DNA of 64,000 nucleotides from a phage, in the NCBI GenBank assembly GCA_033580375.1, contig GCA_033580375.1_4527.1; one strand, given 5' to 3'. This document shows positions 23,652 to 62,197 of the stretch, piece after piece. How positions within the stretch are numbered: position 1 is the stretch's first letter; the number at the start of each line of letters is the position of its first letter. The notes under the pieces are model-generated. The model worked only from the letters and a program-made list of their open reading frames with translations. It was not told the origin of the DNA and did not search any database. Position numbers and translations under genes: made by a program.

Positions 23652-23681
23652 ATAGTATCACGACGCTTTTTGTGTGTAAAC
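23652..23681 (-). promoter_or_regulatory. Early-type promoter (GTTTAC -35, TACTAT -10) for ORF 23356..23622
   Basis: On the - strand GTTTAC-N18-TACTAT, followed by the conserved ATCAAAACATGAGGAG leader. Confidence 0.55.
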
Positions 23682-23687
23682 CACTTT

Positions 23688-23695
23688 TATAAATA
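23688..23695 (+). promoter_or_regulatory. Late promoter TATAAATA for gene 24
   Basis: Exact TATAAATA ~30 nt upstream of the gene 24 ATG. Confidence 0.7.
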
Positions 23696-23724
23696 AAATT
23701 ATATTCTCAATAAGGAAAAATGCA

Positions 23725-25008
23725 ATGAGTAAAATCCAAAAATTATTGCGTGAATCTACAACGTCTACTAGCAACTCAATCGGTCGCCCAAATCTCGTTG
23801 CTTTGACTCGCGCTACGACTAAATTAATATATTCTGACATTGTGGCAACACAAAGAACTAATCAACCTGTTGCTGCTTTTTATGGTATTAAATATCTTAA
23901 CCCAGACAACGAATTAACATTTAAAACTGGTGCTACTTATGCAGGTGAAGCTGGATATGTAGACCGAGAAAAAATTACTGAGCTCACAGAAGAATCAAAA
24001 GCCACACTAAATAAAGGTGATTTTTTCAAATATAATAATATCGTCTATAAAGTGTTAGAAGATACACCGTTTGCAGATATTCAGGAAAGTGATCTAGAAT
24101 TAGCTCTTCAGATTGCGGTCGTTCATTTAAAGGTACGGTTATTTTCGGATGCAGCGGTAACAAGCAAATTTGAAAGCTCTGGTAGCGAAATTTCTGATGC
24201 AAGATTCCAGATTAATAAATGGCAAACTTCAGTCAAATCTCGTAAACTTAAAACCGGTCTCACGGTTGAATTAGCACAAGATTTGGAAGCGAATGGATTT
24301 GATGCCCCTAACTTCTTAGAAGATTTGCTTGCTACTGAAATGGCTGATGAAATTAATAAAGATATTCTTCAGTCTTTAATTACTGTATCGAAACGTTATA
24401 AAGTTACTGGAATTACTGACACTGGATTTATTGACTTGAGCTATGCATCCGCTCCGGAAGCAGGTCGTTCGTTATATCGAATGGTGTGTGAAATGGTATC
24501 GCACATTCAAAAAGAGTCAACTTATACTGCAACGTTTTGCGTAGCTTCAGCTCGTGCAGCTGCTATTCTTGCTGCTTCCGGTTGGTTAAAACATAAACCA
24601 GAAGATGATAAGTATCTTTCACAAAATGCTTACGGGTTCTTAGCTAATGGTTTACCGCTTTATTGCGATACTAACAGCCCATTAGATTATGTGATCGTTG
24701 GCGTAGTAGAAAATATTGGTGAAAAAGAAATTGTTGGATCAATTTTCTATGCTCCGTATACAGAAGGTCTCGACTTAGACGACCCTGAACATGTTGGTGC
24801 ATTTAAAGTTGTAGTTGATCCAGAAAGCTTGCAGCCGTCTATTGGTTTATTGGTTAGATATGCTTTATCTGCGAATCCTTACACAGTAGCAAAAGATGAA
24901 AAAGAAGCGAGAGTAATTGATGGTGGGGACATGGATAAAATGGCAGGACGTTCAGACTTGTCTGTTTTACTCGGTGTTAAATTGCCTAAAATTATTATAG
25001 ATGAATAA
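23725..25008 (+). CDS. 24: Capsid vertex protein gp24
   Basis: 427 aa as in T4 gp24; gp23 paralogue at the expected position. Confidence 0.9.
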   Translation: MSKIQKLLRESTTSTSNSIGRPNLVALTRATTKLIYSDIVATQRTNQPVAAFYGIKYLNPDNELTFKTGATYAGEAGYVDREKITELTEESKATLNKGDFFKYNNIVYKVLEDTPFADIQESDLELALQIAVVHLKVRLFSDAAVTSKFESSGSEISDARFQINKWQTSVKSRKLKTGLTVELAQDLEANGFDAPNFLEDLLATEMADEINKDILQSLITVSKRYKVTGITDTGFIDLSYASAPEAGRSLYRMVCEMVSHIQKESTYTATFCVASARAAAILAASGWLKHKPEDDKYLSQNAYGFLANGLPLYCDTNSPLDYVIVGVVENIGEKEIVGSIFYAPYTEGLDLDDPEHVGAFKVVVDPESLQPSIGLLVRYALSANPYTVAKDEKEARVIDGGDMDKMAGRSDLSVLLGVKLPKIIIDE

Positions 25009-25016
25009 ACGAAAAA

Positions 25017-25032
25017 GGGACCGTAAGGTCCC
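25017..25032. terminator. Bidirectional terminator AAAAA-GGGACC-GTAA-GGTCCC-TTTTT between convergent 24 and rnlB
   Basis: 6 bp GC stem flanked by A5 and T5 tracts. Confidence 0.7.
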
Positions 25033-25039
25033 TTTTTCG

Positions 25040-26047
25040 TTATGATACTAATTCAATCCATGCAGGACGCAGAACATCTTGCACCATTCGGACTAATTCT
25101 TTCTTAACAAGATTCGGATTATCAGATGATGTTAATACAATACCTTCACGAGAAGTTTCTTCCAGAATATCTTGAACAGTCAATCCCATCACTTTGCCAA
25201 AATCTTTTGGTGTTACAGTCCCAATCTTAGAAATCACATTATTAACACGATTTAATGTAACATAACAAGCTAGAACATCAAGCAAGTTTTTGTCAATTTC
25301 GGTTAATGGAACCTGAGTTTTAACAGGTTTATCAGACTTTTTCTTTTCACTGAATTTAGAGTTCTTGCACTTAATAGCTACACGAGTACCGTTTGGCAGC
25401 CATTTAGGGAAACAAGGCTTCAGAACATAACCTTCTGCCGTATTATCACCAATAACATTAGCATCAAATACACAATTATTTGCTTCGACAAGGTCTTCCG
25501 ATGCCGTAGCATTATAAGCGGCTAAGACGGAATCAAGGTCGTTTGGAATCATGATAAGAGCATCAAATGTTCCACGTCCAAGCATTGGTGCCATTTTAAA
25601 ACCAAACGTATTACAGAAATCTTGCATTTCGTAATCACTCATGTAATAAGTATCACCGCTTTCCGTGTTTATGATGATATCGAATACATAGAAATCTTTT
25701 TCACCGTAGTCAACACCTTTCTGAATTCCACCACCAGCGAATTCACCAAAGACTTGATATGTCACCGGCACTGAAGTTGAAATACTGCCCATGACTTCCT
25801 GAACGGCTTTAATAGCTTTATCATACTTCTTGAGTACTATTTCATAACCATAAAAATCTTCTGCTGGAAGAATAGGGCCTGTGCGCTTGGCGCATGTGAC
25901 GTTGTCACGTTCAATAATTAAACTAAAGTTGGTCCCATGGATTTTCTCACGTGCTACCCAAACACCAGTAGTCAAACCATTAGTGTAGAGTTTTTCAATA
26001 AACTTAGAGTTGTAGTGGTTTTCAAGACTGCTGTATTTCTTAAACAT
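25040..26047 (-). CDS. rnlB: RNA ligase 2 (Rnl2)
   Basis: 335 aa; N-terminus [20 protein letters not shown] and KIHG adenylylation motif match T4 Rnl2. Confidence 0.95.
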
Positions 26048-26138
26048 AAATCACCATTATAAATAATAATATCAAAATAATTAGCAGAGACTCTATCTCC
26101 GACCCGATGTTTAATTTGAATGGATAGAACCTAGATTC

Positions 26139-60233: not shown

Positions 60234-60593
60234 TCAATACAGTTTAGCATCAAATTTTCTTTCGATTTCAGGAGTGAAATATAATTCTTTACCACGTTTA
60301 GAAAAGCGACCAATAATATGATAATTATTCTCATCAAATGTGATATTGCCAATATCCGTAGCTTTCAACCAAATATCGATATTTCTATCCAGCTTTATGT
60401 CAAAATTCCAATACGGAGAACTATTACCGAAAATACTACAAGCGGATTCAGTGAAACAACTGCTATAAATCTTGTCTTTAGGAACTACTAATTGATAGAC
60501 GCCTTTAATAAACTGGGGACCCTGCCACTTTGGCTGTTTCTCATCTTTTTCTAATAGAATAGGGTAATAATTAAAGTTCATATTTTCCGCCAC
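60234..60593 (-). CDS. Hypothetical protein (119 aa) between frd and td
   Basis: ORF in operon orientation. Confidence 0.5.
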   Translation of the reverse strand: MAENMNFNYYPILLEKDEKQPKWQGPQFIKGVYQLVVPKDKIYSSCFTESACSIFGNSSPYWNFDIKLDRNIDIWLKATDIGNITFDENNYHIIGRFSKRGKELYFTPEIERKFDAKLY

Positions 60594-60601
60594 GCGTTAT
60601 T

Positions 60602-61186
60602 TCATTTATACACTGATTCCGTAAGGGTTGTTACTTCATCTATTTTATACCAATGGGTTTCAACCATTTCACGCTTGCTTATATCATCAAAAAAACTTGC
60701 ATCTAATTGAACCGTTGAATTAACACGATGCCTTTTAACGATGCGAGAAACAACTACTTCATCTGCATAAGGTAATGCAGCATATAACAAAGCAGGCCCG
60801 CCAATTACACTGATGCGATTTTCGCTGGAATCGATAAACGTTTCAAAAGTTGTATTAGGACTAGATAATTGGATACGTCCACCGGCTACTAAGGTAACAT
60901 ACTCATCCCATGTAATATAGAAATGCGCTAAATCTCCATCTTTAGTTACAGGATAATCACGCGCAAGGTCACACACTACAATATGACTACGACCTGGAAG
61001 TAATGTAGGCAATGACTGAAACGTTTTAGCACCCATAATCATAATTGTACCTTCAGTACGAGCTTTAAAATTCTGGAGGTCTTTTTTAACTCGTCCCCAT
61101 GGTAAACCATCACCTAAACCGAATGCTAATTCATTAAAGCCTTCGACCGTTTTAGTTGGAGAATAAGCGAATACCAATTTAATCAT
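60602..61186 (-). CDS. frd: Dihydrofolate reductase
   Basis: 194 aa; sequence [41 protein letters not shown]... matches T4 Frd. Confidence 0.95.
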
Positions 61187-61431
61187 TACGCAAAACCCCT
61201 TTCAATAAACCATTCAGTGGCTTTATTAGAGTCAAAGAATAATTCTTCATATGTCTTTTCTTTGTTTTCAAAGACTGTCACACAAACGCGTTGACATTCT
61301 CCACAGTATTCTTCTGACATGCTCAAAGCGTCAGAAAACATTTCATTAAATTCATTTAAATCAGGATTATGCAATGCGTTAAAAATTGCATAATCGAATT
61401 CATCGTTCATAAATTCAAATACAAAAATCAT
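61186..61431 (-). CDS. Hypothetical protein (81 aa)
   Basis: ORF with ATGA overlap to frd. Confidence 0.5.
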
Positions 61432-61441
61432 ATTATTTTCC

Positions 61442-61699
61442 TTAAACAGACTTTTTCACAATTTTCCAATCAGCTTTAAACGATTCAACGTCAGAGTGGT
61501 GAATCCAGAATCCTGCACTTTCGCCGTCTTCGTAGAGTGGACATCCGTCACATTCTTCGTTCCAACCCATTTCACGTAAAGCTTCTTCAGCTTGTTCAAG
61601 TAGTTCAGCATCTTTACCAACGACGTTGAAGTACCATTTACCTTTAACTTCAGAATCTTTGATGCTCTGACGTTGTAATCTCATTTTATTCTCCTTCAC
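61442..61699 (-). CDS. Hypothetical protein (85 aa)
   Basis: ORF in operon orientation. Confidence 0.5.
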   Translation of the reverse strand: MKENKMRLQRQSIKDSEVKGKWYFNVVGKDAELLEQAEEALREMGWNEECDGCPLYEDGESAGFWIHHSDVESFKADWKIVKKSV

Positions 61700-61746
61700 T
61701 TTTGATTTGATAGGGCTATGTTATAGTAGCCCTATCTTGTTATAAA

Positions 61747-62139
61747 CTACTTTTTAAAAGTTTTTTGCAAAAGTTTGATGATTTCGTCGACGTTGGTTTC
61801 ATCTACGATACAATGGATTTTTGTTACACCTAAAGTTATACCTTCGTTAGTAGGTTGAGGCTTTACTAAATCTACCTCAGTAAAGTATTTGAACTCGTCA
61901 GGATAAATCTCAAAATAAGTTTCAATTTCACCACCGGCAGAACATACAGTACCATCTTCCATAGTTACACTTACTACGTTTGGCGTATCATTATCATAAT
62001 CAGGTTCCATTCCGTTTACAACAAAACTGGGCCCGTGGAGTTCAATCAATTTTAACATCTTAGCGTTATTATGTGGTGCTTCTTGAACAAAGTCGTCTTT
62101 AAATAAAGGGTTAATGATATAAGATTTTCCGATTTCCAT
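61747..62139 (-). CDS. Hypothetical protein (130 aa)
   Basis: ORF with AGGAA RBS and early promoter. Confidence 0.5.
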   Translation of the reverse strand: MEIGKSYIINPLFKDDFVQEAPHNNAKMLKLIELHGPSFVVNGMEPDYDNDTPNVVSVTMEDGTVCSAGGEIETYFEIYPDEFKYFTEVDLVKPQPTNEGITLGVTKIHCIVDETNVDEIIKLLQKTFKK

Positions 62140-62168
62140 TTTGATTTCCTCATGTTGTTGATAAGTCT

Positions 62169-62197
62169 ATACTAACACATCCAGGGAAGAAGTAAAC
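62169..62197 (-). promoter_or_regulatory. Early-type promoter GTTTAC-N17-TAGTAT for ORF 61747..62139
   Basis: Consensus blocks and conserved CTTATCAACAACATGAGGAA leader. Confidence 0.55.

Follow-up and report, generated by a model that had tools for sequence, protein, structure and literature searches.

The 64,000-nucleotide (nt) stretch of phage DNA analyzed here (contig GCA_033580375.1_4527.1 of GenBank assembly GCA_033580375.1; "the window" hereafter means this whole stretch) spans gene 23 to rnh of a T4-like phage, which its annotated relatives place in the genus Mosigvirus, the RB69 group. A 10-kb piece of it matched about 970 T4-like phages, with Escherichia phage phiC120 showing 98.5% identity to this piece. 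Within the window, repeated blocks of 60-85 bp each stand in front of genes that all lie on the minus strand, in the prereplicative part of the genome. A preliminary description, made from the sequence letters, had named nine such blocks, each with a GTTTAC -35 element, a -10 hexamer, a conserved leader and an ATG; it had taken them for early promoters and had suggested that the leader might be a shared post-transcriptional element, either a ribonuclease (RNase) site or a translational operator, or might have spread by recombination. We examined the blocks, referred to here as cassettes, in the window and in related genomes.

The pattern GTTTAC-N16-19-TAYWAT was found nine times in the window, always on the minus strand, compared to 0.25 ± 0.5 matches in shuffled sequence, and none of 100 shuffles reached nine. 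These matches include a site at 26536 that was absent from the earlier list and exclude the listed site at 62197, where the -10 hexamer is TAGTAT; a relaxed scan added 62197 as well as 61747 (GTTTAT/TAACAT). A position matrix was trained on promoters of T4 and of the close relative Shf125875 and used to scan the whole 64 kb with a cutoff of at least 12 bits. It returned exactly 11 matches, all on the minus strand and scoring 23-49 bits, while shuffled sequence gave 0-1. The 11 are the nine sites named before plus 26536, inside gene 24.3, and 61747, before frd.1; the architecture claimed for the nine was thus borne out at every one of them. In an unbiased repeat search, the cassettes made up the top families, D1, D3, D6, D7 and D14. 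The possibility that the recurrence is an artefact of chance or composition in an AT-rich genome is refuted by these shuffle controls and has a negligible probability: the leader motif, too, occurred 4 times against 0.07 expected, and every site lies on the coding strand just upstream of a start codon. The observations that might be cited for such an artefact are that TATCAAM alone gave 56 matches against 35 expected, being too common to inform, and that a 17-nt form of the leader turns up in unrelated viral contigs about as often as expected by chance.

All 11 sites have the -35 and -10 elements of a T4-type early promoter (Pe), i.e., GTTTAC(A/T), a 17- to 18-bp spacer and TAnnAT, with one GTTTAT and one TAGTAT among them. 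At the nine sites named before, the spacer is 17 nt in three cases and 18 nt in six, and the -10 box is TACTAT five times and TATTAT, TATAAT, TACAAT or TAGTAT once each. Upstream of -38, A makes up 70-90% at four to five positions, resembling an UP element, and T at -15 and G at -14, the mark of an extended -10, reach 80% each in the window set. At 10 of the 11 sites, an AT-rich region, a sigma-70-type promoter, a Shine-Dalgarno (SD) sequence and a start codon form a single compact block, the exception being the internal promoter at 26536; the 5' untranslated regions (5'UTRs) of these ten cassettes measure 20-36 nt. Predicted transcription start sites (+1) were assigned with the help of T4, whose record AF158101 names an "early promoter Pe133295 between cd.2 and cd.3," orthologous to the cd.2 site of the window. 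The coordinate in that name is exactly the A seven bases 3' of the -10 box in our T4 scan, so +1 positions in the window were placed likewise.

The individual sites, all on the minus strand, are as follows. The cassette of an 88-amino-acid (aa) open reading frame (ORF) between genes 23 and 24 (23620..23693; RB69 Pe:109605; matrix score of 49.1 bits) consists of an A-rich UP sequence, a GTTTAC -35 at 23681, an 18-nt spacer, TACTAT, a predicted +1 at 23645 and the 23-nt leader ATCAAAACATGAGGAGATTAAAA before the ATG at 23622. The promoter inside gene 24.3 (26500..26548; Pe:112451; 23.3 bits), with its -35 at 26536, TACTAT and a predicted +1 at 26500, has no leader cassette and is followed by an 82-nt 5'UTR up to the 24.2 ATG at 26418. 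In the alt.3 cassette (39252..39325; Pe:125323), the -35 at 39313, an 18-nt spacer, TACTAT and a predicted +1 at 39277 lead into ATCAACAACATGAGGAAAACGTT and the ATG at 39254. The cassettes of 30.7 (45592..45676; Pe:131670) and 30.8 (46035..46162; Pe:132117) are a direct repeat 444 bp apart (repeat families D3 and D14), both with 17-nt spacers: the former has its -35 at 45664, TATTAT, a predicted +1 at 45629, a 35-nt leader and an ATG at 45594, and the latter a -35 at 46108, TACTAT, a predicted +1 at 46073, a 36-nt leader and an ATG at 46037. The cd.2 cassette (49706..49778; Pe:134561), the ortholog of T4 Pe133295, has a -35 at 49766, TACTAT, a predicted +1 at 49730, the leader ACCAACAAATGAGGAAATAGAA and an ATG at 49708; that of the ORF231c homolog (51830..51902; Pe:136687) has a -35 at 51890, TATAAT, a predicted +1 at 51854, ATGGATAATTGAGGAAATCTAA and an ATG at 51832. 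The promoter of the alc cassette (53234..53308; Pe:138093; -35 at 53296, TACTAT, predicted +1 at about 53259, leader ATCAACAACACGAGGAGAAAATT, ATG at 53236) overlaps the end of rnlA, and rnlA itself is preceded by a cassette (54421..54491; Pe:139277) with a -35 at 54479, TACAAT, a predicted +1 at 54443, AAACTAACTGAGGATACAAA and an ATG at 54423. The frd.1 cassette (61682..61759; Pe:145300; 23.8 bits), which had not been noticed before, combines a GTTTAT -35 at 61747 and a TAACAT -10 with a predicted +1 at 61711, a 27-nt leader and an ATG at 61684. Lastly, the frd.2 cassette (62137..62246; Pe:146013) has its -35 at 62197, a 17-nt spacer, TAGTAT, a predicted +1 at 62162, the leader ATCAACAACATGAGGAAATCAAA and an ATG at 62139.

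As the coordinates above indicate, the sites have counterparts among the 58 early promoters that Nolan et al. predicted in 2006 for RB69 (PMC1524935). The matching interval of RB69 holds 12 of these predictions, 11 of which aligned to window sites in both spacing and sequence, the twelfth being a weak extra; all 11 window sites therefore map one-to-one to RB69 Pe coordinates, and the list of RB69 middle promoters was not the match. The early promoters of RB69 and T4 (Hinton 2010, PMC2988021) have the same A-rich UP region, GTTTAC, TGn and TA(C/T)(T/A)AT as the window sites, and the orientation and gene neighborhoods are the same. T4 has orthologous promoters of this design before 30.7, 30.8, cd.2, alt.-3 and alc. 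In genome-wide alignments of 33 promoters of Shf125875 and 33 of T4, the UP A-tract, the -35, the TGn and the -10 were all seen. The earlier designation of the blocks as early promoters, of the T4 sigma-70 type, is upheld by this orthology. There is very little chance that they are instead middle promoters dependent on MotA/AsiA, or generic weak look-alikes of sigma-70 promoters: each of the 11 has GTTTAC or GTTTAT with a 17- to 18-nt spacer, TGCTT occurs at none, and the RB69 predictions with which they coincide are the early and not the middle ones. What speaks for these classes is that a generic scan for sigma-70 promoters and terminators was noisy, with 82 matches against 67 expected, and that in the T4 site orthologous to the rnlA promoter (window 54450-54479) a MotA box, ATGCTTCC, replaces GTTTAC, the spacer and -10 being otherwise kept. 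The rnlA promoter looks like a case in which a few substitutions would switch a promoter between the early and the middle class.

The leader downstream of these promoters is conserved to different degrees. In its exact 17-nt form, ATCAACAACMYGAGGAR, it is present at three of the nine sites named before (alt.3, alc and frd.2); it has one edit at 23622, the ORF between genes 23 and 24, and two at cd.2, bringing five of the nine to within two edits. The leaders of 30.7, 30.8, the ORF231c homolog and rnlA differ from it by 5-6 edits, random 40-nt windows having a mode of 7, and have in common only a GAGGA or GGAG ribosome-binding site (RBS) and an A/C-rich, G-poor stretch. The conserved leader ascribed to all nine genes therefore stands for five of them, exactly or nearly, and does not extend as a sequence to the other four. 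The 30.7 and 30.8 cassettes have their own distinct 35-nt leader in common. Paralogy of the two genes was considered as the source of this leader and rejected, as their proteins are not detectably related (E of 0.028), which means that what they have in common is regulatory DNA only.

When early promoters of T4 and Mosigvirus were aligned, the start site itself gave a consensus, CCT-A(+1)-TCAAC-(T/A)-A-(C/A). The bases -3C, -1T, +1A, +2T, +3C and +5A are each found in 69-84% of the 33 Shf125875 promoters and in 54-75% of the 33 T4 promoters. Among 117 unique instances from T4-like metagenomic contigs of the IMG/VR database, selected solely on the promoter and ATCAAC, position +7 is T or A in 86%, +8 is A in 66%, and +9 is A or C in 81%. 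Given these preferences, ATCAACAAC counts as a minor form of AUCAAC(U/A)A(C/A), which extends across the family and is commonest as ATCAACTAC; beyond about +9 the consensus degenerates. The published RB69 promoter model is 51 nt long and ends at about +1 (PMC1524935), so the leader is not described by it, whereas the window consensus can be traced to +9 and the RBS. "Additional regions of consensus" have been reported in T4 early promoters (PMC2988021), and our literature searches found no paper on their initial transcribed region. An A/C-rich leader also occurs at a promoter of another class: upstream of gene 31 (window 47423-47490, minus strand), a MotA-box-type promoter (TGCTTTA ... TATTAT) is followed by CTATCGTCAAACAACAAGGAAATAAG-ATG, an arrangement by which a middle promoter, too, would have a CTATC start motif and a C/A-rich leader like those of the early cassettes.

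Composition and variability set the leader apart from its surroundings. From +1 to the SD, G makes up 4%, A 52% and C 24%, compared to 19% G strand-wide, and the 5'UTR of the cassettes (median 23 nt) has a minimum free energy of about 0 and no predicted structure. GAGGA serves as the SD of 7 of the 10 promoter-fed genes but of only 5 of the window's 53 other genes. In a comparison of four Mosigvirus genomes, 5.7% of the columns from +1 to the SD are variable, as against 23% of third codon positions and 17% of promoter-spacer columns, figures in which the partly misaligned (paralogous) frd.2 locus inflates the upstream differences; this makes +1 to the SD the least variable segment, under the same degree of constraint as the two promoter hexamers, -35 and -10.

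Could this constraint reflect a dedicated post-transcriptional operator, AUCAACAAC(A/C)(U/C)GAGGA, that co-regulates early messenger RNAs (mRNAs) through a protein of phage or host origin or through some RNase besides RegB? The equal constraint on leader and hexamers would fit such an operator, as would the 17-mer that alt.3, alc and frd.2 have in common despite differing discriminators, and the mechanism of early shut-off has been described as not fully understood (PMC3014915). We nevertheless consider the operator improbable. The 17-mer is exact in 3 of 11 cassettes, the consensus fades after +9, the leader is without predicted structure, and the Rfam 15 models gave no match at gathering score anywhere in the window. 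Furthermore, the 9-mer leader with its RBS is almost always found at a fixed distance behind a -10 box, and the sole copy without a promoter, before frd.2 in phiC120 and RB69, is explained by the insertion of an ORF. The T4 orthologs differ in sequence (ACTAACATAACATGAGGA) while keeping the A/C-rich character. The fixed distance assigns the 9-mer to the start-site and initial transcribed region rather than to a free-standing RNA element. A free-standing translation element was likewise ruled out, since the 9-mer and RBS almost never occur without a correctly spaced -10 box. In addition, a scan of IMG/VR with the 17-mer gave 71 loci, roughly the chance level by our own estimate, and only 3 of them were both Mosigvirus-like and preceded by a promoter, indicating that the leader alone is not a widespread mobile element. 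The data thus lend no support to a translational operator on the ATCAACAAC bases.

The other post-transcriptional proposal, an RNase site, holds for the SD region of a subset of the cassettes and fails for the ATCAACAAC part of the leader, which differs from the RegB site. For T4 early mRNAs, the consensus cleaved by RegB with ribosomal protein S1 is given as GG*AGRAYARAA (Durand et al. 2006, as cited in PMC3014915). In the 64-kb window, GGAGRAYARAA has only three matches, and all three are cassette RBSs: those of 30.7 (GGAGAATAAAA, 45594-45604), 30.8 (46037-46047) and frd.1 (61684-61694), all on the minus strand. Like the T4 sites, these SD regions agree at all 11 positions and are unpaired, and they are accordingly listed as predicted RegB/S1 sites in 3 of the 10 cassettes only. 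Two further cassettes, those of the ORF between genes 23 and 24 and of alc, have GGAG with an imperfect 3' part, whereas 5 of the 10 use GAGGAA or GAGGAT and lack GGAG. The regB gene lies outside the window and is annotated in Shf125875.

Many cassettes also contain an inverted repeat with its 5' arm within the promoter spacer and its 3' arm at about -6 to +4, which leaves the -10 box in the loop. Such embedded hairpins with a z-score (z) below -2 are present in 6 of the 10 cassettes. Five hairpins of the window that were folded singly ranged from -8.3 to -17.9 kcal/mol (z of -3.1 to -7.2): 30.7, with the -10 box in the loop (45623-45657; -17.9 kcal/mol, z -4.64); cd.2 (49727-49756; -16.9 kcal/mol, z -4.83); the ORF231c homolog (51855-51876; -12.2 kcal/mol, z -3.53); rnlA, over the spacer and -10 box (54454-54472; -8.3 kcal/mol, z -3.10); and frd.1, with 10 bp (61709-61736; -16.4 kcal/mol, z -7.18). 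The cassettes with -35 elements at 23681 and 39313 gave no convincing stem. The mean hairpin z over whole promoter sets was -3.05 in the window, -1.6 in Shf125875 and -1.5 in T4. The arms covary, differing between promoters yet remaining complementary: in an arm-swap control, the pairing of a promoter's own 5' and 3' arms was better than that with the arms of other promoters (permutation p of 0.0002-0.004 in the three sets). Since the 5' arm is in the untranscribed spacer, the hairpin can form only in RNA reading through from upstream or in single-stranded DNA. At T4 gene e and in related cases (PMC3014915), likewise, the 5' arm of a hairpin is upstream of the local start, so that read-through RNA folds and local RNA cannot; at gene e, however, the hairpin sequesters the RBS and the internal promoter is a late one, unlike in the window, where the 3' arm reaches only to about +4, leaving some 8-12 nt to the SD, and an effect on translation is uncertain. 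The embedded hairpin probably insulates against or attenuates transcription coming from upstream.

It also seems to substitute for a canonical terminator. Where such a terminator lies within about 70 nt upstream, the embedded hairpin is weaker (means of -3.5 versus -7.3 kcal/mol), with p of 0.013 when the sets, which are not independent, are pooled and p of 0.049 in Shf125875 and 0.17 in T4. An 18-nt terminator, GGGAGACTTCGGTCTCCC, stands before the 30.8 promoter and the frd.2 promoter alike: on the minus strand it precedes the -35 of 30.8 at 46145-46162 and, as the gene 32 terminator, that of frd.2 at 62229-62246. This terminator, with a UUCG loop, has four copies in the window, one with a single mismatch (3313-3330 and 22665-22682 on the plus strand being the other two positions), placed after gene 23 and gene 32 and before the 30.8 promoter; judged by sequence, it forms another family of regulatory repeats beside the cassettes.

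A composite of this kind is known from T4-like phages as the promoter-early stem-loop (PeSL) cassette (Arbiol et al. 2010, PMC2839356; Comeau et al. 2014, PMC4122927). PeSLs combine the same AT-rich stretch, sigma-70-type promoter, stem-loop, SD and ATG, with a PST/T4 consensus of TTTACW-N17-TAYWAT (PMC4122927), and are located, as here, before small genes of unknown function. Their stem-loops lie between the boxes, overlap the -10 or stand just upstream; those of PST/T4 are just upstream of the promoter, whereas many in the window and in our T4 scan have the -10 in the loop. Of the window cassettes, six have embedded hairpins and two further ones a canonical terminator upstream. PeSLs have been published for RB49/phi1, PST/T4 and nt-1/KVP40, not for Mosigvirus. 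Recombination crossovers in PeSLs fall between the -10 box and the ATG (PMC2839356; PMC4122927), and the window has the same junctions at two cassettes, frd.2 and the ORF between genes 23 and 24.

The junction at frd.2 (62137-62162, minus strand) was seen against phiC120 and RB69, in which an extra 83-aa ORF (ORF245c/gp085) lies between the promoter and frd.2. A copy of the leader, ATCAACAAATGAG(A)GGAA, flanks this ORF on either side, giving the indel a 26-bp repeat at both ends, while the window and Shf125875 lack the ORF and have a single leader copy. ORF245c is present in only 10 of 159 related records, and in one metagenomic contig a promoter of the phiC120 type is joined directly to frd.2. 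In the other case, the small ORF between genes 23 and 24 is an allele with 31% protein identity to that of phiC120, Shf125875 and RB69, and homology resumes in the leader, at 23630-23642. Next to this small ORF (23356-23622, minus strand), on its gene 23 side, is an ORF for a GIY-YIG/seg-type homing endonuclease (phrog_314; 22693-23352, minus strand); the two form a 0.93-kb segment that stands in for 0.27 kb in phiC120, Shf125875 and RB69. Exchange between cassettes is also visible within genomes. In T4, the alt.-3 and alc cassettes differ by one base between GTTTAC and GAGGA, and both differ from their Mosigvirus orthologs, which have the ATCAACAAC leader in common; likeness within a genome combined with difference between genomes amounts to concerted evolution. 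The Shf125875 promoters at 50846 and 8968 have identical 18-nt non-consensus spacers, and paralogous cassettes of that genome reach identities of 0.85-0.90, values biased by taking the maximum over many comparisons and used here only for the existence of near-identical paralogs. Spread by recombination, the last of the earlier suggestions, is thus substantiated by a polymorphic ORF flanked by leader copies, an allele replacement ending in the leader and near-identical paralogs.

Recent recombination or gene conversion of a mobile PeSL might even be all there is to the identity of the leaders, the ATCAACAAC bases having no sequence-specific function; the ORF245c indel, the T4 alt.-3/alc pair, the Shf125875 spacers and paralogs and the published crossovers just described would all follow from it. 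We regard this as possible but doubtful. The start-site preferences recur in T4, in Mosigvirus and in more than 100 metagenomic instances despite differing spacers and discriminators; the depletion of G and absence of structure are general across cassettes of different sequence; and the leader is less variable than the promoter spacer, which homogenization would have affected equally.

Altogether, the data are best accounted for by early promoters of the T4 type, each joined to a compact leader for translation initiation, i.e., composite cassettes of the PeSL type, a reading to which we give a probability of roughly 0.85. Publications on this phage group already cover the promoters, the RegB sites and the concept of the cassette, and the consensus up to +9, the G depletion and the -10-in-loop geometry in T-even-type phages are refinements rather than a new kind of element. 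Several points weigh against this reading or limit it. The closeness of Shf125875 to the window makes the matrix test not fully independent; the +1 positions follow T4 by analogy; the exact 17-mer leader is common to just three cassettes; the misaligned frd.2 locus affects the comparison of variability; and the link between an upstream terminator and a weak embedded hairpin is only suggestive. Only 2 of 8 local indel or replacement events have a cassette boundary, a difference from PeSLs, and the other six are unrelated, two being homing-endonuclease insertions and the rest other junctions; the cassettes make up about 2% of the region and account for 3 of 16 breakpoints. Lastly, the roles in promoter escape and in keeping the RBS open, considered below, draw on general knowledge.

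For these promoter-leader cassettes, homology to T4 suggests the following course of events. Right after infection, unmodified host sigma-70 RNA polymerase would bind through the A-tract UP element near -42, the GTTTAC -35, the TGn extended -10 and the TAYWAT -10, and transcription would start at the A seven bases 3' of the -10. The product would be a 5'UTR of 20-36 nt, nearly free of G and unstructured, with a GAGGA or GGAG SD and an A-rich spacer; such an open leader with a strong SD would let ribosomes load at once. Later, RegB with S1 would cut at the GGAGRAYARAA sites of three cassettes and silence their mRNA. The hairpin, in line with the proposal of the PeSL authors, would take effect in RNA that reads through from upstream. 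Where polymerase is held very tightly by the promoter, an initial transcribed region rich in A and C and poor in G is suitable. On this reading, the conservation of the leader has two causes. Selection would maintain the start-site consensus, a plausible means of setting the position of the start and of helping polymerase to leave such a tight promoter sooner, and would keep the RBS open; concerted evolution, through homologous recombination and gene conversion, homogenizes cassettes and moves genes in and out. As a long shot, AUCAAC(U/A)A(C/A) might be a 5'-terminal signature of primary early transcripts that a phage or host factor reads, for example in early mRNA shut-off or decay, with the embedded hairpin marking read-through transcripts as a separate class.

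The cassettes bear directly on annotation. The start codons at 23622, 39254, 45594, 46037, 49708, 51832, 53236, 54423 and 62139 were all confirmed, and the false N-terminal extensions that had been suspected are present in four mechanical ORFs, which wrongly read through a promoter: 38961-39326 (121 versus 97 aa), 49472-49813 (113 versus 78 aa), 52736-53299 (187 versus 166 aa) and 23356-23637 (93 versus 88 aa). At least one public annotation does the same. The alc gene of Shf125875 (37707-38270) is deposited as 187 aa with a start upstream of the -35, compared to 164-167 aa in phiC120, RB69 and T4, which is probably a start-codon error in the public record. The practical value of the cassettes is mainly of this kind, as they mark early transcription units, give the true starts of about ten small genes and flag places of gene exchange in T4-like genomes, while the known picture of T4-type early gene control is unchanged. 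The consensus up to +9, the G-free unstructured leader, the strong GAGGA RBS and the -10-in-loop hairpin may interest designers of strong phage-derived expression cassettes.

Some neighboring genes of the window vary among relatives. A DAHP (3-deoxy-D-arabino-heptulosonate 7-phosphate) synthase gene, AroG-like (phrog_5045, E of 3e-182; 48359-49351, minus strand), lies between cd.2 and cd; it is also in phiC120 and Shf125875 and is missing from RB69 and T4. The frd gene (60597-61206) is 89% identical to T4 frd versus only 64% to that of phiC120, and by sequence it is a mosaic patch common to different genera in what is otherwise a Mosigvirus backbone; the small ORFs flanking it (60234-60593 and 61186-61431) are also missing in phiC120. 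Between nrdB and nrdA, a homing endonuclease ORF (phrog_655; 56088-56729, minus strand), missing in phiC120, Shf125875 and RB69, occupies the slot of mobE in T4. In T4 itself, at about 26083-26144 (minus strand), a consensus early promoter at the frd.2 end is followed by an SD and the ATG of an unannotated short ORF, which sits in the 139-nt gap before frd.1.

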